From Methanobacteriota archaeon (GTDB lineage: Archaea > Thermoplasmatota > Poseidoniia > Poseidoniales > Thalassarchaeaceae), in assembly GCA_029977385.1 (NCBI GenBank), contig JAPOKZ010000004.1:1-43835 (forward strand): 43,835 nucleotides of DNA, read 5' to 3'. Of the stretch, positions 4,686 through 39,278 are shown piece after piece. The position numbers were made by a program, and so were the translations under genes. The notes below the pieces were generated by a model, which was not told where the DNA came from, ran no database searches, and was given only the letters and a program-made list of their open reading frames with translations. Within the stretch, counting starts at the first letter, position 1. The number at the start of each line of letters is the position of its first letter.

Positions 4686-7385
4686 TCAAGCGGTCGCCGA
4701 ATTGTCCTCTGGGTCCTTGTTGGAAATTATGGCCCAAATTTCCTTGGCATCTTGAAGAATATCTCTTCCCAAATCCGTCAAAGTAGAAAGTCTCCTAGTT
4801 TCAGAACCAGATACCCACATCCCATTCAGGATAATCATCAGTGCACTTGCTTCATGGAGAGCAATTCCGGCTGCTAGATTTATCCTGTATCCCAGTAACA
4901 CACTAATTACCAACATAGAGGTCACCAATACGGAAATTGCGATATTTGCGTATACAACTCTCCTTGTCCTCTTTGCTAGTGCGATCATCCGAGAGAGAGC
5001 CCTTGGGTCTTCTCCAGGAATTAAGACATCGGCTGCATCGAGATTGACTTGATCACCGCTACCGACTGCAACGCCGATATCCGCTGCTGCAAGGGCACCG
5101 GCATCATTGAATCCGTCTCCTGCCATCAATGTACGATTCTCACTAGATTTGGTAGTAACGTATACTGCCTTCTCTTCTGGGTCAACCCCTCCCCTGCACA
5201 TTTCTGGATCGATGCCGATTGATTTTGCAAATGCCTCTACACTTGTTTGCTCGTCTCCGCTCAATATCTCAACTCTGACTCCATGGGAGTTCAGTTCACT
5301 TATCGCCTCACCAACTCCGAATCTAGCATCGTCATGAGAGAAGCCCATGAGTGCTATTGCTGAACCGTCAACTGAGAGTAAGCTGGACCCCATGCCAGAT
5401 TCTCTTGATTGCTGCAGTGCCAGAACTAATGAGTCTGGGATAGTGACTCCCTTAGAAGCAACCCAATCTGCCCTACCCAGAATCACCATTTTTCCGTCTA
5501 ATTGCCCCGAGACACCGGCTTCACCGTCATTTATTGACTCAATCCTGATGGGAGGGAGGTTCCTTTTCTCGACTTCCTGTAGAATGGTCCGTGCATAGGG
5601 ATGGTTGGAGCGCACCTCTAATCCAGCAGCGATCCCAAGGACCCTCTCCTCAGTCTCTCGATCTGCCACAATTATGCTAGATATTGTTGGATTTCCAGTT
5701 GTGAGTGTCCCGGTCTTATCTAACAGAGCCAGTTGCACATCAGCTGCAGATTCTAGAATATCTCCACCTCTAGCGATTAATCCAAACGAGGATGCTGAGG
5801 TTAGAGCTACTGCATGTGGAACTGGTGAGGCCAGAAGAAGAGAGCATGGGCACGATACTACCCATAGTAAAAGAGTAGTGAGAATAGCTTGCTCTACCGA
5901 TCCAGGGTGAGCGAGAAATCCGATTATCGGTGCTGCAAATACCACGAGTGGTGTCCAGAATAGTGTGAAACTCTCGATGGTACTTTGAGTTCGGGTTGGT
6001 TGGTCCTTGTAGTGCCTGACAAGATCGATTAAGCTGGAAAGTCGAGTACCCTGACCTATTGCCTCTGACTTGATCACAATAGGTCCGCGAGTCAATGTCA
6101 GGCCCGCTTCAACTCTGTCTCCTTCCTTTACAGGGACTGGAATTGGCTCTCCGGTAAGTGGAGCTCTGTCGATGGCGCCACTGCCTTCGATAATTTGTCC
6201 ATCAACTGGAATCTTTTCTCCTGATCTGACCTCTACTGATTCCCCTATCTCCAAAGCCTCTACCGGAATGAGTTCTTCAACGGAACAATTGGAAGGAGTA
6301 GGTTCCTGATTTGCAATCTGAATAACCATCATCCTCCGTTCCCCACTACTAATCCCAGGGGATTTTTGTTTGGCTATTCTTGCCATTCTAGGGAGTCTAT
6401 CCAATCCTCCCTGCATAGACTCTCTTGCCTTGATGAGCGCTCTGTTTTCTAGATGAGAAGCGAATGCAACTAGGGCCACAACAAGGAGAGCCTCGATAAA
6501 TTCGCCGAGTGCCACGGCACCTATGATGGCTAGAGAGATCAAAACCTGGAAACCAACGACCCTGTTTTTTAGGCTGGCAATTGCCTCTTGGAAAATATTC
6601 TGCCCGACGAAAACCACTCCTCCAAGAGCCAGTATCGAAGGAACTATGACTGGAACTGCAGAGCTCATCTCAAGTAATGAGACAAGAATGATCAGTGGAA
6701 TCGACAGAATGGAAGAAAGGAGTTGGAGTTGGTCCTTCCTGAATCCAGACTCTCTTGAAGGTTCGAGTCTATGGTCTGAGCCCAGGATCTCTCGGAGTTT
6801 TTGATCCGATGCTTGACGAAGATCGGAATCGAGTATCCAGACCTTCTGAATCTCTATCCTGCCCTTCTCCATTCTTACGTCCAGAACTCCTGGAACATTC
6901 AGAAGCCATTCTCTGAGTCCCTTTGATTCCACTTGAAGTCTTGAAGAGAGAGATGAAGACGATATTCCAACAACTCTCAGCCAGCCAATATCAGGGTCGT
7001 GACCCAAACTGGATAGGACTGAGGATACACGTGAAACGCTTCCATTGGAAATATCTTGAGATACCTCTACGGTACCATCTGCCACAGAAATTCTGCATGA
7101 TTTCACACCGGGAAGTCGGTGTACAGCTCTTGTTGCTTTCATCGCACAGTCGGGACAGTCCATCCCCATAATGCCCCAGTCAAAGGTATGTGTGCCGTCC
7201 AAGGATATCTCAAATCCATCCTCAATGGAATTATCTTGATCTTCAATCACATTATTATTCTCGATTCTTGGCTTGGAGAGTCTCGGAAATCCGATCTTTG
7301 GCAGAGAGATTCTGTCCCTACCTGATTTCAGGGTTTCTTCCTCTTCTTCATCAAGAAAGAGATAGTCCTCGGAGTCTTCAGGCAT
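4686..7385 (-). CDS. Heavy-metal translocating P1B-type ATPase
   Basis: HMA motif GMDCPDC, actuator LTGE, membrane SCPC, phosphorylation site DKTGT, SNHP, GDGFND, last-helix HEAS. Start MPEDSED at 7385 is preferred over 7442. Confidence 0.95.
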   Translation of the reverse strand: MPEDSEDYLFLDEEEEETLKSGRDRISLPKIGFPRLSKPRIENNNVIEDQDNSIEDGFEISLDGTHTFDWGIMGMDCPDCAMKATRAVHRLPGVKSCRISVADGTVEVSQDISNGSVSRVSSVLSSLGHDPDIGWLRVVGISSSSLSSRLQVESKGLREWLLNVPGVLDVRMEKGRIEIQKVWILDSDLRQASDQKLREILGSDHRLEPSRESGFRKDQLQLLSSILSIPLIILVSLLEMSSAVPVIVPSILALGGVVFVGQNIFQEAIASLKNRVVGFQVLISLAIIGAVALGEFIEALLVVALVAFASHLENRALIKARESMQGGLDRLPRMARIAKQKSPGISSGERRMMVIQIANQEPTPSNCSVEELIPVEALEIGESVEVRSGEKIPVDGQIIEGSGAIDRAPLTGEPIPVPVKEGDRVEAGLTLTRGPIVIKSEAIGQGTRLSSLIDLVRHYKDQPTRTQSTIESFTLFWTPLVVFAAPIIGFLAHPGSVEQAILTTLLLWVVSCPCSLLLASPVPHAVALTSASSFGLIARGGDILESAADVQLALLDKTGTLTTGNPTISSIIVADRETEERVLGIAAGLEVRSNHPYARTILQEVEKRNLPPIRIESINDGEAGVSGQLDGKMVILGRADWVASKGVTIPDSLVLALQQSRESGMGSSLLSVDGSAIALMGFSHDDARFGVGEAISELNSHGVRVEILSGDEQTSVEAFAKSIGIDPEMCRGGVDPEEKAVYVTTKSSENRTLMAGDGFNDAGALAAADIGVAVGSGDQVNLDAADVLIPGEDPRALSRMIALAKRTRRVVYANIAISVLVTSMLVISVLLGYRINLAAGIALHEASALMIILNGMWVSGSETRRLSTLTDLGRDILQDAKEIWAIISNKDPEDNSATA

Positions 7386-7466
7386 GATTAATCCACGGTT
7401 GTGTGTGGCTTGAAGATGATGTTTTCTTGTCGGTGGTATCATGAACAGGAATGAGTCCCATCGTTC

Positions 7467-8382: not shown

Positions 8383-9249
8383 ATGGCAGTCGGTTCTGTA
8401 CCTCGTAGACTATCGAAGGGAGAGTTAGAATCTGTCCACAAATCTCTAATCGAGGTCACTAGAAAGCAGAGGAGCAGCGACACTCCTGTAGATGTGGCTA
8501 TGCCGGACGGGATTGGTTTCTGGGACGCAATCGGTCAGTTATTGCAGAACATGGAAACCGAGCTTTCTGAGACTGTGAGAGAAGAAGGCATGACTGCTAA
8601 GGCTCAACTTCTTTCTAGAAGGCTAGGGGTTGCAAGGACATGTGTCAGAGATCTGACGAGAATCCGACTTGCTTCCTTTACTCGTCATGCTATCACCTCA
8701 AATCTACTAAACTCCGGGAGCAAGGACTCCAGGGAAAGTGTCGGTTTGCCTTTGCTTGATTGGAACAAGCATGACCCTTCTGAGAGAGTTTTCTACAATG
8801 GACTCAAGGATCTGGCTGAGATGTACAAGGCCTCTACTTCTTGGTCTAACATGCTAGGTTACTCTGAATCGGTGGGTGTGGTGAGTGATGTCAGCGAGAC
8901 ACTCAGGGACTTCTCTAATGAAGAAAAACTAGAATCGACTGCGAATAGAGTTTCCACAACGGAGGAAGAATGGGAAGAGCCAGACATCGACGAAGAGGAT
9001 CGGATTCGTGAGATGGACGATTACCCTGAACACGCTTCCTCCTCTTCCGAGTCTCGTTCTCTAGACGAGCAGCCCAGCGAAGAAGTGGAGGACCTTCTAA
9101 GAATAAGAGTACTGAAGGATGTAGAGGACCCTATTCTGATGGCAGATGGCTCTGAGGTCGTACTCACAGAGGGGGACATCGAGACCTGTCCATCATTGAT
9201 TGCTGAAATTCTAATTGCGGCTGGACTCGCTGAAGCGGCTCCGATATAG
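8383..9249 (+). CDS. DNA replication GINS-family subunit (Gins51-like A-B arrangement with acidic linker)
   Basis: Helical N-domain, D/E-rich linker, and a C-terminal B-domain pattern RIRVLKDVEDPILMADGSEVVLTEGDI...IAEILIAAGLAE. Confidence 0.7.
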   Translation: MAVGSVPRRLSKGELESVHKSLIEVTRKQRSSDTPVDVAMPDGIGFWDAIGQLLQNMETELSETVREEGMTAKAQLLSRRLGVARTCVRDLTRIRLASFTRHAITSNLLNSGSKDSRESVGLPLLDWNKHDPSERVFYNGLKDLAEMYKASTSWSNMLGYSESVGVVSDVSETLRDFSNEEKLESTANRVSTTEEEWEEPDIDEEDRIREMDDYPEHASSSSESRSLDEQPSEEVEDLLRIRVLKDVEDPILMADGSEVVLTEGDIETCPSLIAEILIAAGLAEAAPI

Positions 9250-9298
9250 TAGGGCAATTACTAACTCTCTCCGGTATCGGCATGGTTTCAGAGATAAT

Positions 9299-10645
9299 AT
9301 GTCAAGGGGAGTAACTGAAGCACAGATTGGAGAATATAGGAAGTCATTCGATTCGGATCCATCGGCCGCTATCGCTCAGAATGCTGTCAGCAACGCCGAT
9401 CTGTCAACCTTGGCTCTTCGGAGAGATCTAGTTCAGAACATGGACTTCTCATTCAGTACAAAGCTGGATGATTGGAGTGCCACAAACCAGAGGAGGAGTG
9501 GTCGATGTTGGCTCTTCGCTACTCTGAACCTATTCAGGGTGGGTGCAATGAAGAAGATGAATGTGAAGAGTTTCGAATTCAGCCAGGCCCATATCCACTT
9601 CTGGGACAAGCTCGAAAGATCCAATCACTTCCTTGAGGCGATACTAGAGACTTCTGACAGACCGGTCGATGACCGAACTATTCACTTTCTACTTAGTGAT
9701 CCAATTGGAGATGGCGGACAGTGGAACATGGCCATGAATCTAATCAGGAAGCACGGACTTGTGCCAATGTCGGCATATCCAGAATCTCACAGCAGTAGCA
9801 GCACCAGATCTATGAATACGGTTCTGAAAGACATCTTGCGAACTACGGCTAGTGAGATTAGGGGTATTCTTGATGGTGGAGGTTCCGAAGATAACGCTAG
9901 AAAGCACAAAGAGGAGAGGATGAAGGAAATTTGGAGAGTTCTTTGCATTCACCTTGGAACCCCTCCAGAGGAGTTCGACTGGCAGTGGAGAGACAAGGAC
10001 AATGAATTCCATAGGAAGGGGACAATGACTCCTCTGGAGTTCGTAGAGGAGTATGTGGAAGTCGATTGGGAGAATTACGTATGTATCGTTAACGATCCCA
10101 GAAACGAGTACTTTAGAACGTACACAGTAGATTTCCTACAGAACGTGTCAGGAGGACCGCCCGTCGTTTATCTCAACGTTCCATCAGATGATATGAAGGA
10201 AATAACACAGAGACTCCTGGAGGATGGAACTCCAGTTTGGATGGGATGTGACGTTGGAAAGAGCATGGCTCGCAAGAGGGGGCTATGGGATGCTGATCTG
10301 TATGACCTGCAAGGATTGTATGGAATTCAATTTGGGATGGATAAGGCAGACCGTTTGAGGTTTGGACAGACAATGATGACCCATGCGATGCTATTCACTG
10401 GAGTTGATGTGGTGGATGGAAAGCCTAGAAGATGGAGGGTTGAGAACTCCTGGGGTACTGAAGATAGTGGAGAGAAGGGTTTCTACACGATGAACGACAA
10501 CTGGTATGACGAGCACATGTTCGAGATAGCCGCACCCAAGGAATTCCTCACTGATGAGATGAAGAGAGGATTGGATAGTGATCCAACTGTTCTCCCTGCT
10601 TGGGACCCAATGGGTTCTCTGGCTAGGGACGAAGGATTACTCTAG
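9299..10645 (+). CDS. pepC: Aminopeptidase C / bleomycin hydrolase (peptidase C1B)
   Basis: TNQRRSGRCWLFA (catalytic Cys), MTHAM (His), WRVENSWG (Asn), C-terminal LPAWDPMGSLA. Confidence 0.95.
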   Translation: MSRGVTEAQIGEYRKSFDSDPSAAIAQNAVSNADLSTLALRRDLVQNMDFSFSTKLDDWSATNQRRSGRCWLFATLNLFRVGAMKKMNVKSFEFSQAHIHFWDKLERSNHFLEAILETSDRPVDDRTIHFLLSDPIGDGGQWNMAMNLIRKHGLVPMSAYPESHSSSSTRSMNTVLKDILRTTASEIRGILDGGGSEDNARKHKEERMKEIWRVLCIHLGTPPEEFDWQWRDKDNEFHRKGTMTPLEFVEEYVEVDWENYVCIVNDPRNEYFRTYTVDFLQNVSGGPPVVYLNVPSDDMKEITQRLLEDGTPVWMGCDVGKSMARKRGLWDADLYDLQGLYGIQFGMDKADRLRFGQTMMTHAMLFTGVDVVDGKPRRWRVENSWGTEDSGEKGFYTMNDNWYDEHMFEIAAPKEFLTDEMKRGLDSDPTVLPAWDPMGSLARDEGLL

Positions 10646-20594: not shown

Positions 20595-21280
20595 GTGGGC
20601 TCATGAGTTACAGCGATGTTGAGCCGGGATTCATCCCGCTTGAATACTCGGAGGTGGAAGAGGCAGAGATGCTTCGAATTGCGAAATCTTACTATGACCA
20701 AATGAACTCAAGGAGGACCACGCGTCACTTCTCCAACAAGAAAGTACCTAGAGAGTTGGTAGAATTAGCAATCAGGACTGCCAGCACAGCTCCCTCAGGG
20801 GCGCATCTCCAACCCTGGACTTTCGTGGCGATTTCAAACAGCGAGCTGAAGTCAAGGATAAGAGAGGCGGCAGAAGAAGAAGAGAGAAGATTCTACCAAG
20901 ACAGAATTCCGGAAGAGTGGGAGGAGGTCCTATCGCCTCTGGGAACAGACCACGTGAAGAGGCACATCACAGACGCACCTTGGGTTGTTGTACTATTCAG
21001 ACAATCAAAGAGGAAAAGAGGAGAGGGTATGGCTCCCACATACTACTCTCAAGAGTCCTGTGGGATCGCTGCTGGGATGTTCATCTCAGCAGTTCACAAT
21101 ATGGGCTTAGCGACCCTCCCCCACACTCCTTCCCCAATGGGTTTCCTTAGGGAAATCCTAGGACGCCCAGAGCATGAGCACGCAATGCTGCTGCTTCCAG
21201 TTGGTTATCCAGCAGAGGATGCAAGGGTACCAAATCTGGAAAGGAAGAGGCTCGAAGAGGTGTCCGAGTTCTGGGATTGA
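20591..21280 (+). CDS. Nitroreductase-fold FMN protein, iodotyrosine deiodinase (IYD)-like
   Basis: RRTTRHFS, TAPSGAHLQPWTFV, lid IREAAEEEERRFY...LGTDHVK, HTPSPMGFLREILGRP, LLLPVGYPA...VPNLERK. Confidence 0.85.
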   Translation: MSGLMSYSDVEPGFIPLEYSEVEEAEMLRIAKSYYDQMNSRRTTRHFSNKKVPRELVELAIRTASTAPSGAHLQPWTFVAISNSELKSRIREAAEEEERRFYQDRIPEEWEEVLSPLGTDHVKRHITDAPWVVVLFRQSKRKRGEGMAPTYYSQESCGIAAGMFISAVHNMGLATLPHTPSPMGFLREILGRPEHEHAMLLLPVGYPAEDARVPNLERKRLEEVSEFWD

Positions 21281-21309
21281 TTAAGTATCTCAGATTTTCA
21301 GGATGTTCC

Positions 21310-22542
21310 ATGAAGAGCAACAGAAGGAATGCCTTAGCGATTCTGCTAGCCCTACTAATGACCGCCTCTGTCCTATCCGGTTGCTCCGGAACTGACGAGG
21401 AATTGGATGACGAGCCCAAGGAATTGGAAGACTGGAGCGTTTTCCTAGTCCAGAGTTCTTCGGATCTTCCAACTTGCGATATCGTAACCGACGGAAGGCT
21501 CTACTATGTATCTTCAGAGTCAGGATTCCATGCATGCTCGAACGGTGCATGGCAGTCCATCGAACTAACTGGGCCCCCTGGGCCTCAGGGACCAGCTGGG
21601 GCTGACGGAGCAGACGGATCGATAGGGCCAGCAGGACCTGCAGGTGCTGACGGAGCAGATGGATCGATAGGTCCGTCTGGGCCTCCTGGGGCTGACGGGG
21701 CTGACGGGGATGATGGTACCTCTTTCACAATTATTGGAACCGTGGAGGAAACCACCGACCTGGGAGAGATATACATCGGAGAATCAGGAGACGCGTTCCT
21801 AGTTAACTCGACCGTTCACATCCATGTCTGGAGTGGGTCCGAATGGATAGATCTGGGGAACATCTCGGGACCACAGGGCCCGTCTGGGGAATCTGGTCCA
21901 GAGGGACCTATCGGTACAGAGGGTCCTCCCGGTGCTGATGGACTCTATGCACTCATCGACAGCACTGCATTGTCGACAGGAAGCGCAAACTGCCCAATGG
22001 GCGGAAATGCTGTGAGAATAGGGATGGATGATAACGGTGACGGGAATCTTGATCCTCTCGAGGTAGACCAGACCTTGTACGTCTGCAATGGAGTAAACGG
22101 TGTAGACGGAAATGACGGGACCGATGGCGCAGATGGGACCGATGGCGCAGATGGGACCGATGGCGCAGATGGCGCAGATGGCGCAGATGGTTCAATGCCC
22201 GTGGTGATGGAGATGACGGTCACCGTTTCGAGCATGGATTTCTACATTGATTCTATTCAACAGGCGGATGTAACACTATACAGGGGGTTCACCTACACCT
22301 TTGACCAATCTGCTTCTAGTAACTCCGCACACCCATTCAGACTGTCTACCACTAGTGATGGGACTCATGGAGGAGGAACCCAGTACACTGACGGGGTGAC
22401 GTATACGGGGACTCAGGGGTCGAGCGGCCTAATGACCTTCACAGTTCCATTGGATGCACCTGACACTCTGTACTACTACTGCCAGAACCACGGAAGCATG
22501 GGCGGAGAAATAACAATTCAGTCCCTAGGAAGCGTTTCCTGA
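21310..22542 (+). CDS. Collagen-like surface lipoprotein with C-terminal cupredoxin-like domain
   Basis: RR plus hydrophobic stretch and lipobox LSGC, three G-X-Y runs, a CPMGG...DDNGDGNLD...VCNG module, and C-terminal HPF...YYYCQNHGSM. Confidence 0.85.
   Translation: MKSNRRNALAILLALLMTASVLSGCSGTDEELDDEPKELEDWSVFLVQSSSDLPTCDIVTDGRLYYVSSESGFHACSNGAWQSIELTGPPGPQGPAGADGADGSIGPAGPAGADGADGSIGPSGPPGADGADGDDGTSFTIIGTVEETTDLGEIYIGESGDAFLVNSTVHIHVWSGSEWIDLGNISGPQGPSGESGPEGPIGTEGPPGADGLYALIDSTALSTGSANCPMGGNAVRIGMDDNGDGNLDPLEVDQTLYVCNGVNGVDGNDGTDGADGTDGADGTDGADGADGADGSMPVVMEMTVTVSSMDFYIDSIQQADVTLYRGFTYTFDQSASSNSAHPFRLSTTSDGTHGGGTQYTDGVTYTGTQGSSGLMTFTVPLDAPDTLYYYCQNHGSMGGEITIQSLGSVS
21598..21687 (+). 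repeat. Two imperfect 45-bp tandem units in the collagen region
   Basis: Units start at 21598 and 21643, both encoding GADGADGSIGPxGPx. Confidence 0.85.
22117..22188 (+). repeat. Perfect coding tandem repeat (GGGACCGATGGCGCAGAT)x3 + (GGCGCAGAT)x2
   Basis: Read directly from the sequence; encodes GTDGAD x3 and GAD x2. Confidence 0.92.
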
Positions 22543-24513: not shown

Positions 24514-26604
24514 TCACTCGCTAGGTCTGTCGATGAGCCACCAAATTACCATCTCTCCAGTCTCCGAGTCCATGGCCAAATCAACTGACATTTCTCGTCC
24601 GGCTTCTTCCCATTCCCTAACTGCGTTCATTGTTACCTTTCCATCTCCCAAGTCACCTGGAAGGAGGCTCAGGACCTCATTATCCTCTGTGACGGATAGC
24701 CTGTAACCAACCTCAGCTTGGAGGTTCCAAGATTCTCCGGACTGGATGTATGGAGACAGGGCAGGATACCTCTCGGGTTCCAGAATCCTTGATTCCAGTA
24801 AAGAGAGAGTCTGAGTACTAGGGATAGAGTCTCTATTCCAAGTCACCTCTCCCCTATCATTAGAGCCCGTTGAAATCATCTCACAGCCTTCAGATGATCT
24901 CCGAAGTACCAGCCAACCAGAGTCATCGTCATCGTCAACCCAAGACATGTTCCATTCCGGTTCAGAAGTAGGCCTCGACCAAGAGGCCCTCCAGATATAT
25001 CCTCCAGATTCTACAGCCAAGGTTGCCTGAGTATCCGGATATCTAGATTTGAGGCAAGCTACTGCCTCCTCCATATCGAACTGTCTAATTTCTGTTTCGT
25101 CCCACATGGAGTCAACCCAGTTCCTCTTTGTTGATGTGCCTGGCCTATCCTCACCATCTGCGGGACTCCCTGGATAGTTCCTTTCCCAATCGATTTCACT
25201 ACTTCCGATAGTAGAAGAAATTCTGGAGAATGTCATGCTAATACTGAGAGTTCCTTCGGGCAGGAGTTCATCCGATAGGGTGCTAACTAGGAAGTCGCAA
25301 TCGTTTGTCTGGAGTTCCTTGTCCAGCCTTATGTCAGCAACCTGCTTGACAGGCCAAGGACTCCCATCCTTCAGGTGCAGTAGAATTGTAGCATGCCCAT
25401 AGCACCTTCCAATTTCCTCATGATCAAGATAAACAGGATACACTAGACCATGAGTATCATCCCTGAACTCCTTCTTCACTTCCCATTTCCAATCGGAATT
25501 CCAGCCTAGATCTGGATCGGAAGAACTCGCTCCCTCCTTGATCACGGCCTCTCCAAAGAATTCGTGTAGCTCAATTGGGGTTAGTGGAAAGGAAAGGGTG
25601 GGTAAGAGAGCACCCAAACCTCCGATTCCCTCAGAGTCGTAGGTTACCGTCCTAGCATTCGTTGTTACCGAATCCACGTCGCTGAACGAGATTGAGGTAT
25701 CGGTCCTCTTCACCTCTGTCTTCTCCAGTTCCACCCAGCTGGTTGACTCCATACTCAGGTCATTTCCGGACATTACCCAACGAATATTCCCACAGTCTGT
25801 GTTCGCATCGTCCCTCCAAGTTCTTCCCTCGAAATCAACGTCTAGATCGAGTCTTATTCCCTTCTCTGCAGACAAGAAACCTGTTCTTCCTAGGCTATCT
25901 GTAGTTTCTACTGCTCCCGAATTAGGTCCTTCGGTTACTGATACCAAACCAGTACCACCCATATCCATCGACACCTCCCCACATGCCGGTTCAAGAATCC
26001 CACCACTAGAGTCCCTCACCACAGAGAGCATCTCCTCCCCGTCTATGCTTATTCTCGAGTCGATTACCTGGAAGTCCATCCTATCTCCATACCTCAACTT
26101 CGCTACCTCGAAACCCGAACTACGTTGTAGGAAAACGGTAGTTGCTGCCCCCACGAGGATGACCACAACTATGATCGCTGCTAGGGCCTTCCATTTGTCT
26201 CCCAATGAAGAAATAGAAGGCATAGAGATGACCAAAGAAGGCTGATCGTCCTCTGCCACTATTACCGATTCAGCATCCCCGGATATCTCAGATTCCGTTG
26301 TTAAGACCTCGGCCTCGACAACCTCGGCTTCCACGATGTTATCGATTTTAGATAGGACCTGATTCACCTTTACTCGTGTATCATCTGGTTCTTCATCCAT
26401 GACTAGAGCGTCCTCTTGCTCCCAATCGTCTTCTTCGGAAATTTCTACAGGCTCCTCAATCACCCCTGCATCCTCAAGTATTCTATCTACCAATTCCGAT
26501 TTCTTTCCCGAGACAAGTAGTCCCCGCTTCTTGCACATTTCCCTAAGCTTCGCAACCGTGTTCGAGGTAAGCGACTCTCTGTCAATTGAATCGTCTTCGG
26601 GCAT
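24514..26604 (-). CDS. SAP-domain single-pass membrane protein
   Basis: N-terminal SAP motif LTSNTVAKLREMCKKRGLLVSGKKSELVDRI, acidic linker, one TM helix (ALAAIIVVVILVGAATTVFL), then about 535 aa of acidic, Trp/Cys-containing sequence. Confidence 0.82.
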   Translation of the reverse strand: MPEDDSIDRESLTSNTVAKLREMCKKRGLLVSGKKSELVDRILEDAGVIEEPVEISEEDDWEQEDALVMDEEPDDTRVKVNQVLSKIDNIVEAEVVEAEVLTTESEISGDAESVIVAEDDQPSLVISMPSISSLGDKWKALAAIIVVVILVGAATTVFLQRSSGFEVAKLRYGDRMDFQVIDSRISIDGEEMLSVVRDSSGGILEPACGEVSMDMGGTGLVSVTEGPNSGAVETTDSLGRTGFLSAEKGIRLDLDVDFEGRTWRDDANTDCGNIRWVMSGNDLSMESTSWVELEKTEVKRTDTSISFSDVDSVTTNARTVTYDSEGIGGLGALLPTLSFPLTPIELHEFFGEAVIKEGASSSDPDLGWNSDWKWEVKKEFRDDTHGLVYPVYLDHEEIGRCYGHATILLHLKDGSPWPVKQVADIRLDKELQTNDCDFLVSTLSDELLPEGTLSISMTFSRISSTIGSSEIDWERNYPGSPADGEDRPGTSTKRNWVDSMWDETEIRQFDMEEAVACLKSRYPDTQATLAVESGGYIWRASWSRPTSEPEWNMSWVDDDDDSGWLVLRRSSEGCEMISTGSNDRGEVTWNRDSIPSTQTLSLLESRILEPERYPALSPYIQSGESWNLQAEVGYRLSVTEDNEVLSLLPGDLGDGKVTMNAVREWEEAGREMSVDLAMDSETGEMVIWWLIDRPSE

Positions 26605-27822: not shown

Positions 27823-27880
27823 AGAAGGGTTGAACAAAGAAGGGAGAAACAGAGAGACGGTATTCGCACCAAGAGGGAGA

Positions 27881-28948
27881 TTGGGCCAGAGGTTCGATTC
27901 TGATGATGTCGGTCTTTCTGACACGCTGCCTTCGAGATTGTACAGGATTTCAGAGCTTCAATGGCACGAATGCTGGTTACAACAGCTCCGCTCGGAAAAA
28001 AAGAGTGCGCACACCATTAGAGCATACGACGTGGCAGCTAGAGCGTTTTCAACCACCTCTCTTCCGGGAGAAGGGGCTCTGGCATGGGGGGATTCTTCCA
28101 GAATTCCAGTGAGAGATTTCCATCTCTTTGCCGATCCAAACAATGGAAGAATGGATGCTTGGATGAATGGACTCGGGGAGCTTAAGCCAGCTACCATTAA
28201 TGCAAAGATTGCTGCCCTAACCCACCTTTTGAAATGGCTCGGTCACATCGTCCCGGACTGGATACAAAGGCCATCTAGAAGTCGGTCTCTTCCGAAGACT
28301 CTGGGCAAAAGAGAGTTGGATAGACTCAGAAGGGCAATCAGCGATTCCGAAGACCCGTTAGCAATGCCCGTATCCACTCTGATGCTAGATACTGGGCTAA
28401 GGGTCTCGGAGCTTTGCGCTCTCGATATTGACGACATAGACAAGGAAGACCTATCGGCGTTGGTGATAGGTGGTAAGGGAGAGAAAGATAGAACCGTACT
28501 ATTCACGAAAAAATCGGTTGAAGTCCTGGAATCATGGGAGCCTATCAGAGAGAGTAGGATCAGGGGGAGCGAAGACTTCGGTCTTAGGGCTATGTTCGTT
28601 TCTAGCAGAGGGCGCAGAATCAACCCTCGCTCGATACAGAAGATGATGGACAGACTAGCTGATGCCGCAGACATCCCGAAGAGCAGGCTTAGCCCCCATA
28701 CACTGAGGCATACTTTCGCTACTGGCCTACTAGAGAGGGGTGCGGACCTGGTCACCATCCAGAGACTTCTAGGACATTCGAGCATAGCAACCACCAGGGT
28801 ATACCTGGAGATAGGAGATCAGACCCTCAGAGAGATTTACCACAGGGCGCAGAGGAGCCCTCCTCCTAGACTGGAATCTGAAACGAATGAGGATGAAGTT
28901 CAGGAGATGGTGGAGAAGTCGGCAGGAAGTATTCCAACGGAGCTCTAG
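27881..28948 (+). CDS. xerA: Tyrosine recombinase XerA-like
   Basis: Full catalytic set: TGLRVSE, GKG, HTLRH, LLGH, TTRVY. Start uncertain (TTG 27881 after GAGGGAG; ORF extends to 27830). Confidence 0.88.
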   Translation: MGQRFDSDDVGLSDTLPSRLYRISELQWHECWLQQLRSEKKSAHTIRAYDVAARAFSTTSLPGEGALAWGDSSRIPVRDFHLFADPNNGRMDAWMNGLGELKPATINAKIAALTHLLKWLGHIVPDWIQRPSRSRSLPKTLGKRELDRLRRAISDSEDPLAMPVSTLMLDTGLRVSELCALDIDDIDKEDLSALVIGGKGEKDRTVLFTKKSVEVLESWEPIRESRIRGSEDFGLRAMFVSSRGRRINPRSIQKMMDRLADAADIPKSRLSPHTLRHTFATGLLERGADLVTIQRLLGHSSIATTRVYLEIGDQTLREIYHRAQRSPPPRLESETNEDEVQEMVEKSAGSIPTEL

Positions 28949-34716: not shown

Positions 34717-35439
34717 ATGTCAGTGATGACTCCAATCTTCGCAGGCCTGTGGGATCACTATATTTTCTGGTCCTTAATTGTCGGAGGATTTGCTTTCGGG
34801 TGGCTTTACCACCACTCCTTCTGGTTCACTTCAAAGGACGGAGAAAAGCTCCCAAACGTTGACGAGATAAAAATCGGGGTTTTCCCGAGGCACAATGACG
34901 ATATGCGGCTAGAAGTAGCTTGGACGGTCCTCCCGTTCATTCTAATCGTCTGGCTGACCTACTACTCATGGGGCCCACTGGATGCAATGTGGACGTCCGC
35001 AGATGGAGGTATTCACGGACATGAGTGCGAGGAAGGACAATTCTCGAATAACACCATGGACAGTTCCGGTATAATTTCCTCAGAGTGCTACCATGTGATA
35101 GAAATCACGGGTCAACAGTGGTTCTGGAGCTTTGATTGCCTAGAGCTTGGTACAAGCATCTGCGACACAGGAACTGAAACAATGGAGGTATACGGAAGTG
35201 TTCCCGTGCTAAGTCTGAAGAAGGGCGAGACGTACTTAGCAACCATGACTTCGATAGACGTGACGCACGCACCTTGGTTCCAACATCTTGGGACCAAGGA
35301 AGACACATTGCCTGGCCAACAGACCACTCTTTGGCTCCCAATCCCAGACTCGATGACCGATGAATCCATGGTCCTGTGCGCAGAATACTGTGGAGACGCT
35401 CACTCGGTCATGGCGGCCAAGCTGATTGCTCACAACTAA
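34717..35439 (+). CDS. coxB: Heme-copper oxidase subunit II (CuA)
   Basis: LEVAWTVLP, GQQWFWSF, DVTH, CAEYCGDAHSVM. Confidence 0.93.
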   Translation: MSVMTPIFAGLWDHYIFWSLIVGGFAFGWLYHHSFWFTSKDGEKLPNVDEIKIGVFPRHNDDMRLEVAWTVLPFILIVWLTYYSWGPLDAMWTSADGGIHGHECEEGQFSNNTMDSSGIISSECYHVIEITGQQWFWSFDCLELGTSICDTGTETMEVYGSVPVLSLKKGETYLATMTSIDVTHAPWFQHLGTKEDTLPGQQTTLWLPIPDSMTDESMVLCAEYCGDAHSVMAAKLIAHN

Positions 35440-35451
35440 GGTGGAGTCAAA

Positions 35452-37785
35452 ATGAGAAGCAGAACAAAAGGTGCAATCGCTGCCCTAGTAGTCATTTCTG
35501 CGATGCTCGCCCTTCCTTCTGCTCAATCTCTTCCCGGTGGGATCTCTGGAGTTCAGCAATCTGGATGCAACTGCCATGGTGCCGTCCCATCTGATTCCGT
35601 TGTCGCCTCCATAGAGGGTCTACCAGAGAGTTACAACTACTCCGAGACTTACGACATTACGGTCTCCTTCCAAGGTGGGCCCAGTCAAGAAGGGAATGTG
35701 AACCAAGGTGGGTTCCACCTTTGGGCTAGCCAAGGTTCCTTGGCAGTGAACGACGCTACTGCCCAGTTATACAACGAGAACGAGGTTGGGCACACAGAAG
35801 CAGGAAATGACCAGGTCGCCTGGACGCTCACTTGGACTGCGCCTGCTACGGACACGAATGTGGATTTCATCCTGCATGTGAACTCAGTTAACGGGAACGC
35901 TGACGGAGCTGGAGGGGGCACTTCAGGAGATATGTGGAGTAAACTCACCATCACGCTCGGAGGGCCAGTTGAGGTATTGGAGGCTGCGGATCCTTTCGTA
36001 GTCCTAGGAGTTCTCATCATCGTCTCTGCGACCCTACTAGCATTCACACTAGTGTTCGTTTTCTACAGGAAGGACCCAGAGGCCTTCGATTGGGATAACT
36101 TCGCACCATGGCTAGCAGACTGGCTGACCAGCACAGATCACAAGAAGATAGGCACACTGTACTTCGTAGCCGGGCTCTTCTTCCTTGGAGTAGGTGGAAT
36201 AATGGCGATGATCATCAGAATCCAGCTAGCCGTACCAGGGAACGACTTCCTGACACAGGAGCAGTACAACCAGTTCTTCACACTCCATGGCACCACGATG
36301 ATTTTCCTAGCCGCAATGCCGATGATTAACGGGTTTGCAAACTGGATGATCCCCCTCCAACTGGGTGCAGCAGATCTAGCCCTTCCAAGGATCAACGCGA
36401 TGTCTTTCTGGTTGCAGCCATTCGCGGCTCTACTTATTTTCACGGGGGTTTTCTCGGGCCACGGTGCAGACACTGGGTGGACGGGATACGCCCCTTACGT
36501 AGTAAGCGAAGGAGCGCATTACGGGACGACCATGTGGGCAGCCGGACAGATAATGCTGGTTGCTTCCTCGACGCTGACTGGCATCAACTTCCTCACGACC
36601 ATGGCAGTCATGAGAGCGCCTGGGATGGGATGGATGCAGATGCCACTCTTCAGCTGGTCTGTACTAGTAGCCAACGTGATGCTGTTCCTATCAATCCCCG
36701 CATTCGGAGTGGGGCTGATACAAGTTTACCTGGACAGGGTGATTGGTACTGCATTCTACGACATAGCAGCTGGGGGGGATCCGTTGCTGTGGAGTCACCT
36801 GTTCTGGTACTTCGGTCACCCTGAGGTTTACGTTGTGATAGTTCCGTCGTTCGGCATCATCTCCGAGGTCATCGCAACCAGCTCGAGAAGATCGGTGTTC
36901 GGCTACCGTTCCATGGTATACGCTCTAGCTGGAATTGGAGTAGTAGCATTCATCGTTTACGGCCACCACATGTTCACAAGCGGCATGAGTCCGACGCTAA
37001 GGTTCGTGACGATGCTCACAACGATGCTTGTGGCCGTTCCTACGGGAATCAAGATATTCAACTGGCTAATGACGATGCACGGAGGGTCACTTGTCTACAG
37101 GACCCATACTCTCTGGGCGCTTGGATTCCTGGTAACTTTCACACTGGGAGGGATTTCAGGGATGTTCTTCCCATCGATAGCAATGGACACTCACCTGCAC
37201 GAGTCGTACTTCGTGGTCGCTCACTTCCACTACGTCCTAGTTGGAGGCACCGTCTTCGGGTTCTTCGCCGGAATCTACTACTGGTGGCCTAAGGCTACAG
37301 GAAAGATGCTCAGCGAGAAGCTTGGAGTGCTGCACTTCCTAACAGCATTCGTCTCTTACAACGCCCTCTTCTGGCCAATGCACAGGCTGGGAGTATGGGG
37401 GATGACTCGAAGGCACCATACGTACTTCGTGACCACCGAGGAGGCCCTTGGATCCCTTCCAATGGAGGCTGCTGGATGGAACATGTTCATCACAGTCTCC
37501 GGGTTCATCTTCTTCTTCTCCAACTTCATCATGGTGTTCAACATGATTTCTTCGTCCATCAGGGGCGAGGATGCACCAGATGATCCATGGGGAGGGTGGT
37601 CGTTCGAGTGGATGACGAGCTCGCCTCCTCCGAACCACACACTATACAAGCTCGATGACGGGTCTTGGGGCCTCCCAACCCTGAAGGATGCGAACGAGCA
37701 CATTGCAAACGAACCCGGATGGCTCTCCAGCTGGTTCCAGAGGCTGATGGTCGAAGACGAAGATACAGAGGGGGCTTCGCATTGA
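35452..37785 (+). CDS. coxA: Heme-copper oxidase subunit I (A1 type) with extra N-terminal extracellular CxCH domain
   Basis: STDHKKIG, HGTTM, WYFGHPEVY, GHHMF, PTGIK, VAHFHY, MTRR. Preceded by a signal peptide, a domain of about 150 aa and an extra TM helix. Confidence 0.95.
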   Translation: MRSRTKGAIAALVVISAMLALPSAQSLPGGISGVQQSGCNCHGAVPSDSVVASIEGLPESYNYSETYDITVSFQGGPSQEGNVNQGGFHLWASQGSLAVNDATAQLYNENEVGHTEAGNDQVAWTLTWTAPATDTNVDFILHVNSVNGNADGAGGGTSGDMWSKLTITLGGPVEVLEAADPFVVLGVLIIVSATLLAFTLVFVFYRKDPEAFDWDNFAPWLADWLTSTDHKKIGTLYFVAGLFFLGVGGIMAMIIRIQLAVPGNDFLTQEQYNQFFTLHGTTMIFLAAMPMINGFANWMIPLQLGAADLALPRINAMSFWLQPFAALLIFTGVFSGHGADTGWTGYAPYVVSEGAHYGTTMWAAGQIMLVASSTLTGINFLTTMAVMRAPGMGWMQMPLFSWSVLVANVMLFLSIPAFGVGLIQVYLDRVIGTAFYDIAAGGDPLLWSHLFWYFGHPEVYVVIVPSFGIISEVIATSSRRSVFGYRSMVYALAGIGVVAFIVYGHHMFTSGMSPTLRFVTMLTTMLVAVPTGIKIFNWLMTMHGGSLVYRTHTLWALGFLVTFTLGGISGMFFPSIAMDTHLHESYFVVAHFHYVLVGGTVFGFFAGIYYWWPKATGKMLSEKLGVLHFLTAFVSYNALFWPMHRLGVWGMTRRHHTYFVTTEEALGSLPMEAAGWNMFITVSGFIFFFSNFIMVFNMISSSIRGEDAPDDPWGGWSFEWMTSSPPPNHTLYKLDDGSWGLPTLKDANEHIANEPGWLSSWFQRLMVEDEDTEGASH

Positions 37786-38903
37786 GCGGAGAAGACCACC
37801 ACCCCAGCGCATGGGGCCCGCATGACTGGAACCATGGGGCACCTCACAACTCGTGGTCCCCATTCATACTCAGCATGGGTGTGGCCATCTTCCTCTTCTC
37901 CCTAGGAGCTGCGTACGAGTGGGGAGAGTTCCAGGGCTGGGGTAACGTCCCACTGATCTTCGTGGGGCTGGGGGTTATCTCGTTCAGCCTGCTGATCTGG
38001 TGGAGGCAGGATATGAGCTTCGGAATGCATGGCGAGGTCTTCGAGCCGAAGTCCACGGGAACCCCCTTCCAGAACATAGACATCAGGAAGGTCGCGATGT
38101 GGATGTTCCTAATGTCGGAGATGATGGTCTTCACCTCCCTGTTCAGTACGTACATGAGGTACAGGCTCGGGATTCCTAACTGCAAGACAGTCTTCCACTC
38201 CGGTGAATGGGTCGAAGGAACAGCCGTGACCTGCTTCGAGCCGGCAGGTCACCTAATCGCATCGAGCTGGTTCCACATAGCCCCGGGAGCGATAAACACG
38301 TTCGCGCTAATCATCTCCTCATTCACTATAGTGCAGGCACTCCGCTACGCCAAGAAGAAGGACATCGACGAAGACGTCAGGAGAAGGAAGGTGACTCGAT
38401 ACCTAGGTACCACCTGGTTCCTAGCAATACTCTTCCTCACGCTGAAGATGATAGAGTGGTTCCTGGGCTTCCCCCTGCCAGAGTTCCTACACGAGTTCAA
38501 CCACGGTGATTCGGAAATCAAGTCTCTTTACGCTGAGGGGTATCTCATCAACGCAGACAGCTACGAGCACAAGGCCTTCGACACCGATTACATAGAGAAG
38601 CACCCCGAGGACTACTCAATCCCAGAGGAGAGTGCCCTCTACGCAATGATGGAGGCTGGCACCCATCCCGGAGGCAAAATGATGGCTAACATCCAAGTGA
38701 GCGCCACCACGTTCTACGTGACCACCGGGACACACGGGGCTCACGTCCTGGGTGGGATCATCGGCCTAACCTACATGACTCTGAAGGCAGCAAAGGGAGG
38801 ATATACCCCTGACAACGCGGTCTCGATAGAGTACTTCGGGCTGTATTGGCACTTCGTGGACCTGGTCTGGGTCCTGGTCTTCCCGTTCTTCTATCTATAC
38901 TGA
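37782..38903 (+). CDS. coxC: Heme-copper oxidase subunit III
   Basis: SWSP, MWMFLMSEMMVF, NTFALIISS, FYVTTGTHGAHV, LYWHFVDLVW. The TTG start overlaps the coxA stop (TTGA). Confidence 0.92.
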   Translation: MSGEDHHPSAWGPHDWNHGAPHNSWSPFILSMGVAIFLFSLGAAYEWGEFQGWGNVPLIFVGLGVISFSLLIWWRQDMSFGMHGEVFEPKSTGTPFQNIDIRKVAMWMFLMSEMMVFTSLFSTYMRYRLGIPNCKTVFHSGEWVEGTAVTCFEPAGHLIASSWFHIAPGAINTFALIISSFTIVQALRYAKKKDIDEDVRRRKVTRYLGTTWFLAILFLTLKMIEWFLGFPLPEFLHEFNHGDSEIKSLYAEGYLINADSYEHKAFDTDYIEKHPEDYSIPEESALYAMMEAGTHPGGKMMANIQVSATTFYVTTGTHGAHVLGGIIGLTYMTLKAAKGGYTPDNAVSIEYFGLYWHFVDLVWVLVFPFFYLY

Positions 38904-38915
38904 GGTGAAAAATAA

Positions 38916-39278
38916 ATGGCGCACTACAAGATTCTGGGGCAGGACCCCTACTGGATGAACTTCTACGGACTGATGATACTGACTCTCATCGAGGTACTCG
39001 CGGTCGGGGCCGACCTGGACTCGTTTGCAGAGTCGATGGGAACCGAGGAGAAGGTAATCACCCTGTGGATACTCACCATCATCGCCATCCCGAAGTTCAT
39101 CATGATCGCTGCCATCTTCATGCACCTGTACGGGGACGAGGACTCGGGGATACTGACGATGACAGCTCTCTTCCCCGCCTTCTTCATCATCATAATGGTC
39201 CTATTCGTTGGCCTCACCCACCCTGATGCGGCTTCGAGCCTGCCTGCATGGTGCAGACCCGGAACCTATGGCCTGTGA
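38916..39278 (+). CDS. coxD: Heme-copper oxidase subunit IV-like membrane protein
   Basis: LMILTLIEV, IAIPKFIMIAAIFMHL, three TM helices, GAGGTGA SD, last gene of the cox operon. Confidence 0.85.
   Translation: MAHYKILGQDPYWMNFYGLMILTLIEVLAVGADLDSFAESMGTEEKVITLWILTIIAIPKFIMIAAIFMHLYGDEDSGILTMTALFPAFFIIIMVLFVGLTHPDAASSLPAWCRPGTYGL

Follow-up and report, generated by a model that had tools for sequence, protein, structure and literature searches.

Why would the catalytic subunit of a terminal oxidase carry, ahead of its usual start, an exported domain with a CxCH motif? This question is raised by a gene on contig JAPOKZ010000004.1 of a Marine Group II archaeon of the order Poseidoniales, family Thalassarchaeaceae, which encodes a 777-amino-acid (aa) fusion of such a domain to cytochrome oxidase subunit I (CoxI). 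The window referred to below is the whole 43,835-nt stretch of this contig that was analyzed; all coordinates are those of its forward strand, and aa numbers are those of the fusion protein. An initial annotation, made from the letters of the window, had left it undecided whether the domain binds haem or a metal and whether it serves electron entry or assembly. The evidence assembled here, which is drawn mainly from sequences, favours haem over metal and electron entry over assembly. We consider it probable that the N-terminal domain is a c-type haem domain, which would hold its haem at a CX1CH site and act as a built-in electron entry delivering to CuA. The best reading of the approximately 180 N-terminal residues is that they constitute a secreted, membrane-tethered c-type cytochrome of an undescribed kind, built on a Reeler-related sandwich.

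Architecture of the fusion protein

The open reading frame (ORF) of the fusion (35452..37785, plus strand) is translated as one uninterrupted frame of 777 aa plus a stop codon, and specifies, from the N- to the C-terminus, a signal peptide, a beta domain of about 150 aa with the sequence GCNCHG, an extra transmembrane (TM) helix and a complete CoxI. All these parts were found as the initial annotation had described them, and the strings it had picked out are present: GGFHL (aa 86-90), EVGHT (aa 111-115), WTLTWTAP (aa 124-131), NSVNGN (aa 144-149), GDMW (aa 159-162) and WLTSTDHK. The coxI start lies 13 nt past the coxII stop; the GGTGGAG read between them (35440..35446, plus strand) resembles a ribosome-binding site and, standing 5 nt ahead of the ATG at 35452, appears to back the latter as the start codon.

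The signal peptide MRSRTKGAIAALVVISAMLALPSAQS (aa 1-26, 35452..35529, plus strand; hydropathy segment at aa 5-27) is of the Sec type, with no twin arginine, and its A-x-S pattern predicts a cut after AQS, which would give a mature N-terminus LPGG. The region at aa 22-164 (35515..35943, plus strand) was identified by an NCBIfam match and an AlphaFold model as a choice-of-anchor V domain (NF041895) forming an all-beta sandwich. GCNCHG occupies aa 38-43 of the translation (35563..35580, plus strand), and the segment Cys39-Asn-Cys41-His42 (35566..35577, plus strand) is, in view of its conservation, a putative CX1CH haem c attachment site; the whole fusion protein has no cysteines other than Cys39 and Cys41. 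His114 (35791..35793, plus strand), which is also conserved, is a candidate distal haem ligand. A lipoprotein was considered and rejected, as Cys39 sits 12 residues beyond the predicted cleavage site and outside any lipobox.

The extra TM helix delineated by hydropathy (F182-Y205, 35995..36066, plus strand) runs from the outside to the inside and is followed by YRKD; the helix and linker residues F204, Y205 and P209 are invariant in an alignment of 23 fusion proteins. The CoxI core (aa 232-685, 36145..37506, plus strand) matches PF00115 with an E-value of 1.1e-136 over profile positions 1-435 of 436, and scores 620.5 bits with TIGR02891 (CtaD_CoxA), which is under the equivalog cut-off of 670.75. 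H279, H456, Y460, H505, H506, H591 and H593 are invariant in all 23 aligned fusion proteins; judging from the motifs GHPEVY, HHMF and HFHYV, we take the six histidines to be the ligands of haem a, haem a3 and CuB, and the tyrosine to be the cross-link Tyr. CoxI normally begins on the cytoplasmic side of the membrane. An outside domain followed by a cytoplasmic CoxI start makes a consistent topology, since the signal peptide exports the domain and the extra helix brings the chain back. Separate translation of CoxI from an internal start was rejected: there is no in-frame ATG, GTG or TTG at aa 209-228 (36076-36135), and the only nearby in-frame GTG is Val201, which lies within the extra helix.

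Conservation and spacing of the CxCH motif

In an alignment of 109 members of the domain family, sharing about 30-50% identity, Cys41, His42 and Trp124 are present in all the sequences, Cys39 and Gly38 in 108, Asp160 in 107, and His114 in 104 (with Gln in four others and Phe in one). The Cys and His residues on which the initial annotation had based its proposal are therefore conserved. Its suggestion that a later histidine might provide a second ligand can be upheld for His114, which may play this role, but not for His89 (in GGFHL), which is not conserved, the family having mostly Asn, Arg or Ala at this position.

The spacing within the motif is variable. Among the top 150 family representatives, 138 have CxCH, two CxxCH, two Cx4CH, one Cx6CH, one Cx8CH and one only A-T-C-H, while the remaining five consist of four fragments lacking the N-terminus and of P0256, the N-terminus of which is divergent or incomplete. 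The 84 further members comprise 80 with CxCH, one with Cx4CH, one with C-S-R-H, one with A-T-C-H and one in which the segment is absent, and the giant paralogs with RCC1 repeats have CGGGGCH. Haem c motifs are themselves known to vary, with a fixed Cys-His pair and a first Cys which is at a variable distance or lost (CXXCH, CX3CH, CX4CH, CX15CH and the single-Cys euglenozoan cytochromes). Since the Cys-His pair is fixed, the spacing of the first Cys variable and this Cys rarely lost, the CxCH segment behaves like a haem c site. A two-thioether link at CX1CH looks feasible according to our own estimate, which is not a computed one, since the Calpha atoms of residues i and i+2 are about 5.4-7 Å apart, like those of i and i+3 in the helical CXXCH turn. 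CxCH is also the box II of Rieske proteins; a Rieske-type 2Fe-2S site was considered for the domain and rejected, as it has no box I, two Cys only and no Tat signal.

Recurrence of the fusion in other genomes

A search limited to aa 20-215 gave 113 protein clusters of 427-1360 aa, 44-97% identical to the query, all of which have PF00115. CxCH is present in all 114 fusion sequences, the query included (CNCH in 109, CYCH in two, and CSCH, CTCH and CGCH in one each), and in 23 diverse fusion proteins C39, C41, H42, H114 and about 30 other domain residues are invariant. A search with the single protein, which reached no further than Marine Group II relatives, showed the domain to be encoded at 65 loci in separate GTDB species genomes, single-cell genomes among them; the closest of these loci (95-98% identity) come from single-cell and metagenome assemblies, and those of lowest identity (37-43%) may be stand-alone paralogs. 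In each of the 32 loci examined, which were chosen among those of the 65 having a full upstream flank, the gene immediately preceding the fusion is a coxII with a CuA motif. An assembly artefact, which the initial annotation had named as a danger to its interpretation, is excluded as the origin of the fusion by these 113 clusters and by the 65 loci in separate assemblies.

All the sampled words of the interval 35300-36300 are present in 14 runs from eight studies; since 13 of these runs are flagged as possible sources of this DNA, they do not amount to independent support. The same interval is covered in part by contigs of three RNA libraries: one of them joins coxII to the ORF (35300-35566) and another leads from the domain through the helix to the CoxI start (35804-36300), with DNA carry-over being possible. 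As regards the database records, a contig carrying the fusion at 84% identity (L017) is labelled as belonging to a bacterial metagenome-assembled genome (MAG) of Acidiferrobacter sp. and was probably mis-binned, and several records call these A-type CoxI fusions "cbb3-type cytochrome c oxidase subunit I".

Fold of the domain

The AlphaFold model of the CoxI N-terminal domain, based on the 109-sequence alignment, is all-beta (pLDDT 89.9, pTM 0.85). In an exhaustive VIA-align search of 48,161 chains, the top two matches were cytochrome f chains, 2jxm_B (Z 10.3, rmsd 3.2, 137 aligned residues, model residues 1-149) and 4ogq_C (Z 10.0, rmsd 3.6, 143 aligned residues), followed by a cohesin (Z 8.8) and the Reeler domain (Z 8.5, 106 residues). 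The copper protein YcnI was also among the matches (Z 7.3). Only the cytochrome f alignments begin at model residue 1; most of the others begin near residue 21, which is beyond the CxCH segment. Foldseek ranked the F-spondin Reeler domain first (E 5.6e-6, TM 0.5-0.57) and a cytochrome f chain 38th. Many of the matches given by the two programs are sandwiches of the cohesin, pilin or macroglobulin type.

An independently built model of a paralog of about 274 aa (pLDDT 86.4) also gave cytochrome f on top (Z 10.5 and 9.9), with Reeler at 8.1; its alignments start close to the predicted mature N-terminus (model residue 30-32) and, on the cytochrome f side, at chain residue 1. Over both models, the cytochrome f alignments span 137-146 residues, and no other top match extends over the CxCH segment. 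In these models, the fold appears to be closest to the large domain of cytochrome f, the N-terminal haem segment included, as judged by the span of the alignments. Since cytochrome f exceeds unrelated sandwiches by about 1.5 to 2.4 Z units on an immunoglobulin-like sandwich, this likeness is suggestive and does not prove homology.

Sequence relatives of the domain

No Pfam family was matched by the N-terminal domain at E-values up to 0.1. The NCBIfam profile NF041895 (choice-of-anchor V) matches it at aa 22-164 with an E-value of 6e-26 and 91.3 bits, the cut-off being 42, over profile positions 7-146 of 150. A family search of 1.84 billion cluster representatives gave 693 matches at E-values up to 1e-3. 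Most of the members are secreted proteins of 190-280 aa with a C-terminal anchor, which may be PGF-CTERM-like, a TM helix, MYXO-CTERM or a T9SS tail; they are named in the databases only "choice-of-anchor V domain-containing protein" or "hypothetical", with no function attached, and NF041895 is defined solely by its association with varied C-terminal anchors.

The initial annotation had been reminded of Reeler domains, and this comparison proved apt. Pfam Reeler (PF02014) is matched by 31 of the 109 family members at E-values up to 1 (best 3.1e-7), the window's own domain giving no PF02014 match; the family profile reaches the F-spondin Reeler domain at an E-value of 0.03 in a search of the PDB sequences; in the nearest Atlas clusters, Reeler is present in 13-57% of the members; and it is an F-spondin Reeler domain that heads the Foldseek ranking. 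Judging by sequence, the family is a remote, divergent relative of Reeler which does not reach membership at the Pfam cut-off. When the PDB sequences were searched with the domain alone, only chance matches were obtained (E-values of 0.12 and above), and neither this query nor the family profile retrieved a cytochrome f chain.

Haem-attachment machinery and its candidate substrates in related genomes

The machinery which attaches haem c was looked for in five related fusion-bearing genomes (G001-G005), one of which (G005) is 97% identical to the window in the domain. All five harbor CcmE and a CcmF/NrfE-like gene of about 790 aa. A CcmC-like match (241-267 aa) was found in four of them, G001 having a single PF01578 match, and in the one genome examined in this respect (G003) a CcmA-like ABC ATPase gene adjoins the CcmC-like gene. 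The only CcmE copy translated, that of G002, ends with GCPSKY and thus has the archaeal CxxxY haem-binding motif. The accessible parts of a study on archaea describe this motif in CcmE and report that CcmABCEF is enough for cytochrome c maturation in Methanosarcina (PMC9084895). The cytochrome c maturation genes evoked by the initial annotation therefore do exist in related genomes, both CcmE and the CcmF/CcmC family occurring in five out of five. Since export is Sec-like, with no twin arginine, the cofactor would be added outside the cell, as haem c is.

A census of motifs was made in G004 (1,486,031 bases, a near-whole genome, with 1407 called ORFs). CxxCH occurs in only four of these ORFs, which encode a 482-aa fusion of an AhpC/TSA thioredoxin-like domain (CVNCH) to a CcdA-like domain (L182:12496-13944, minus strand), a 477-aa 4Fe-4S/NrfD protein, and two proteins of 67 and 76 aa with no hydrophobic N-termini. 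The 482-aa fusion is a candidate for, and likely to be, the thiol-reduction arm of cytochrome c maturation in one polypeptide, and not a cytochrome. A six-frame scan of the same genome gave 74 CxxCH strings, of which four belong to those genes, three fall between genes and 67 lie out of frame within longer ones. CxCH was found in six ORFs, namely four secreted choice-of-anchor V proteins, the Rieske protein (in box II) and one doubtful ORF of 164 aa. The Pfam families Cytochrom_C and Cytochrome_CBB3 were not detected in any of the five related genomes. Since these small genomes have kept Ccm and show no credible CxxCH cytochrome, the CxCH proteins are the sole evident candidate substrates.

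The domain and the machinery also tend to occur together. Among 251 sampled genomes of the phylum, NF041895 was found in 90 and CcmE in 79: both occur in 67, the domain without CcmE in 23, CcmE without the domain in 12 and neither in 149, giving an odds ratio of 36, which is not corrected for phylogeny and depends on a CcmE threshold close to the scores of Marine Group II. PF01578 genes (CcmF/CcmC family) are present in all the 15 genomes with a strong domain match but no CcmE match.

Paralogs and their gene contexts

The five related genomes carry two to four members of the choice-of-anchor V family each. The paralog of about 274 aa has the motif CTCH and consists of an outside domain and one C-terminal TM helix. 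Its gene comes first in an operon, ahead of those encoding a 150-aa membrane protein (weak DUF7318), a Rieske protein with a Tat signal (CPHLCC, CICH), a b6-type cytochrome b, of which only the N-terminal half is present, and a 930-aa CCG/4Fe-4S protein with HdrD-like CCG domains. The paralog, 150-aa protein and Rieske genes lie on the same strand in six out of six genomes; the full order was confirmed in G002 (L100:8731-14556) and G189 (L194:1656-7471), and the same order is found in L087, L089, L090, L092 and L093. The 274-aa paralog occupies the position of cytochrome c1/f in this Rieske/cytochrome b operon, and the Rieske/cytochrome b complex of Marine Group II is an unusual "complex III". 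According to the accessible parts of Tully (2019, PMC6336850), these archaea have cytochrome b and Rieske without a canonical cytochrome bc1.

Other members occur in more varied surroundings. Some genomes have a second CoxI fusion, beside coxIII, a multicopper/plastocyanin-like protein and CopD, and P0127 and P0131 are more divergent CoxI fusions of the domain. P0140 (647 aa) combines a choice-of-anchor V domain, two CARDB repeats and a C-terminal copper domain of the plastocyanin/azurin type; if its first domain binds haem, it would be a two-centre redox protein. In further members, the domain is the N-terminal module of surface proteins of 880-1800 aa with PKD, TSP3 or RCC1 repeats. Its place at the head of such large surface proteins does not agree with a purely respiratory role for the whole family.

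Two other sets of paralogs were recorded. The loci L196:5092-10545 and L197:4331-7783 encode surface proteins of 1150-1817 aa with CGGGGCH (Cx4CH) followed by RCC1 and ephrin-receptor-like repeats. A paralog of 340-350 aa with CTCH and three predicted C-terminal TM segments is encoded at L099:8593-9615 in G002, where it lies between pntB and tatC, and has equivalents in G003, G004 and G005; in all four genomes the same contig also carries ccmE, at a distance of about 16-18 kb.

The oxidase operon

The fusion gene belongs to an A-type oxidase operon (34717-39278) with the order coxII, coxI, coxIII-like and coxIV. The coxII gene (34717..35439, plus strand) encodes 240 aa with the CuA motif CAEYCGDAHSVM and matches Pfam COX2 (E 3.3e-6); no cytochrome c domain was found by Pfam in this coxII. 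The coxIII-like gene (37665..38903, plus strand) matches Pfam COX3 over aa 345-411 (E 8.8e-11); its start is uncertain, and the longest ORF overlaps the end of coxI. It is followed by coxIV (38916..39278, plus strand), encoding the prokaryotic subunit IV (Pfam COX4_pro, E 4.8e-10).

Proposed mechanism

That haem is bound, by which ligands, along which path the electrons run and that the domain is in contact with CuA are our inferences from these data, and the whole might be arranged as follows. After Sec export and cleavage of the signal peptide, Cys39 and Cys41 would be kept reduced by the thiol-reduction protein. CcmABC would put haem on CcmE, and CcmF would then join it covalently to Cys39 and Cys41 of the CX1CH site, with His42 as the proximal iron ligand. 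The distal position might be taken by His114 or else, in the manner of cytochrome f, by the amino group of the N-terminus that signal-peptide cleavage exposes. Held by the extra helix, the domain would be positioned on the external side of the oxidase, next to the CuA domain that subunit II provides. Electrons would probably enter the domain from the 274-aa f-like subunit of the Rieske/cytochrome b complex, directly or via an anchored paralog, and would pass onward to CuA, haem a and lastly haem a3/CuB.

In the surface ocean, Marine Group II archaea rank with the most abundant heterotrophs. If the mechanism is correct, the cytochrome-f-like CxCH protein would fill the missing role of cytochrome c1, and the CoxI fusion would explain the electron route to the oxidase. 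The accessible parts of PMC6336850 describe the "complex III" of these organisms as lacking cytochrome c1. The known range of Ccm substrates would also be widened and, if CxCH does function as an attachment site, scans for CxxCH overlook a whole family, amounting to 693 representative clusters at E-values up to 1e-3. Cytochrome f, an orphan fold of oxygenic photosynthesis, would gain its first candidate relatives, and the question of its origin would become testable. A bolder proposal, to which we would give tentative credence at most and which is on balance doubtful, is that choice-of-anchor V/Reeler-like domains are widespread, overlooked CX1CH c-type cytochromes which run the respiration of Marine Group II as c1/f-equivalent, oxidase-fused and anchored carriers, cytochrome f being a descendant or a sister lineage.

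Points against haem binding and alternative explanations

Several observations weigh against the haem-binding interpretation. The organisms are uncultured, the case for haem in the CxCH domain is made from sequences and models, and the haem-sized pocket lined by Cys39, Cys41, His42 and His114 is a putative one. Haem attachment to CxCH is unreported: the full-text literature, the coverage of which does not extend to subscription journals, yielded only Rieske box II and irrelevant papers, and within the same coverage neither this domain nor any cytochrome-f-like protein of these archaea was found to be described. The Ccm system of E. coli reportedly accepts CXnCH with n = 2 to 6, and we know of no case in which Ccm has succeeded with n = 1. 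The sequence kin of the domain are Reeler domains and not known haem proteins, and the 25 most frequent Pfam matches listed for the 109 members at E-values up to 1 include no cytochrome f family; the lead of cytochrome f over unrelated sandwiches in the fold search is narrow. His114 is replaced by Gln in four of the 109 family sequences. The Ccm genes were detected in close relatives only, the CxxCH census was made on a single MAG, possibly an incomplete one, and the co-occurrence table ignores phylogeny. Lastly, the paralogs in large surface proteins are as compatible with an adhesin-like module as with a redox module.

These points leave room for three other explanations, the first of which dispenses with haem: Cys39, Cys41, His42 and His114 might be the ligands of a copper, iron or zinc ion or might make up a redox-active CxC disulfide, and the domain would then be either a copper-type electron carrier comparable to sulfocyanin or halocyanin, or a copper-delivery or assembly module for CuA or CuB. 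Two cysteines and two conserved histidines do make a plausible metal site, other archaea employ copper proteins in place of cytochrome c, the family member P0140 is fused to a plastocyanin-type domain, YcnI is one of the fold matches, and a copper P-type ATPase with a heavy-metal-associated (HMA) domain is encoded in the window (4686-7442). CxCH is moreover the box II of Rieske proteins in the accessible parts of PMC4122944, and occurs as CICH in the neighbouring Rieske gene of the related genomes. A chelating site, however, would not tolerate Cys-Cys spacings of 1, 2, 4, 6 and 8 at a fixed Cys-His pair, an iron-sulfur cluster would need Tat export, for which the signal peptide lacks the twin arginine, and the Ccm genes and the CcdA-type thiol-reduction protein would be left unexplained in small genomes having no canonical CxxCH client. 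Adjacent Cys and His residues, in addition, seldom bind one metal ion. We therefore hold a haem-free redox or metal site to be unlikely.

It is less likely still, in our view, that haem c is bound without serving as the entry to CuA, the domain being a sensor, a protective haem (peroxidase), a docking or structural element of a supercomplex, or the partner of a donor unrelated to Rieske/cytochrome b. Such roles would agree with the presence of the domain at the head of large surface proteins with no obvious respiratory role, and no computed result places it next to CuA; but all members of this oxidase clade have it joined to their catalytic subunit, the coxII of the operon has no cytochrome c domain, a paralog stands in the c1/f position of the Rieske/cytochrome b operon, and no class I cytochrome c carrier was found in the five related genomes. 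The least probable of the three is a cofactor-free, Reeler-like structural or adhesive module, perhaps spacing or stabilising the oxidase under the S-layer, whose CxCH cysteines would form a structural disulfide adjoining a conserved His. The kinship with Reeler in 31 of the 109 members, the many cohesin, pilin and macroglobulin sandwiches among the fold matches and the paralogs in giant adhesin-like proteins are in its favour, but Cys-His is absolutely conserved in archaea and bacteria alike, at an overall identity of about 30%, which goes far beyond what a structural disulfide would lead one to expect, a CxC disulfide is strained and uncommon, and such a module would account neither for the orphan Ccm system nor for the gene contexts in respiration. 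A c-type haem domain serving as the electron entry of the oxidase is the explanation which we favour.

Other features of the window

The copper P-type ATPase mentioned above (minus strand, 918 aa) is probably a copper exporter, and its gene lies about 28 kb from the oxidase operon. A Peptidase C1-like gene of the bleomycin-hydrolase type (9215-10645, plus strand, E 1e-164) is in line with a IIb placement of the organism, bleomycin hydrolase being listed as a trait of the IIb clade in the accessible parts of Tully (2019, PMC6336850). The window also contains a 421-aa ORF with collagen triple-helix repeats and DUF7151 (21277-22542, plus strand), a gene for a 696-aa protein of which an N-terminal SAP domain is the only recognised part (24514-26604, minus strand), and a gene for a recombinase of the phage-integrase family (27830-28948, plus strand).

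Comparison with known systems

Cytochrome f (PetA), the large domain of which consists mainly of beta-sheet, is the best structural match of both the CoxI domain and the 274-aa paralog. They have in common the location of the motif near a mature N-terminus generated by cleavage of a signal peptide and, in the case of the paralog, an outside domain with one C-terminal TM helix which is encoded together with Rieske and a b6-type cytochrome b. The differences are that no sequence match was obtained, that the motif is CxCH here as against CxxCH, and that the inserted small domain of cytochrome f is absent. The present domain also has the conserved His114, is fused to CoxI and belongs to a non-photosynthetic archaeon. 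The sixth ligand of cytochrome f is its N-terminal amine, so that a counterpart of His114 is not needed there.

The caa3 oxidases resemble the fusion protein, if its function is as proposed, in having their own c-type cytochrome on the outer face as the entry to CuA. In caa3, this cytochrome c is located at the C-terminus of subunit II, whereas the present domain stands at the N-terminus of subunit I, to which it is connected via the extra TM helix, and it is a beta sandwich with CxCH instead of a class I cytochrome c. In the quinol-dependent nitric oxide reductase (qNOR), NorB has an N-terminal NorC-like extension, with the cytochrome c fold but without its haem. Here again, the catalytic subunit of a haem-copper enzyme carries an N-terminal outside domain and one or more additional TM helices before the 12-helix core; in the CoxI fusion, however, the fold is Reeler-like/cytochrome-f-like and the Cys/His motif is strictly kept. 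The Reeler domains (PF02014) of F-spondin and reelin are the sole detectable sequence relatives of the domain family and, to our knowledge, do not bind haem; their VIA-align match to the CoxI domain covers 106 residues, as compared with 137-143 for cytochrome f.

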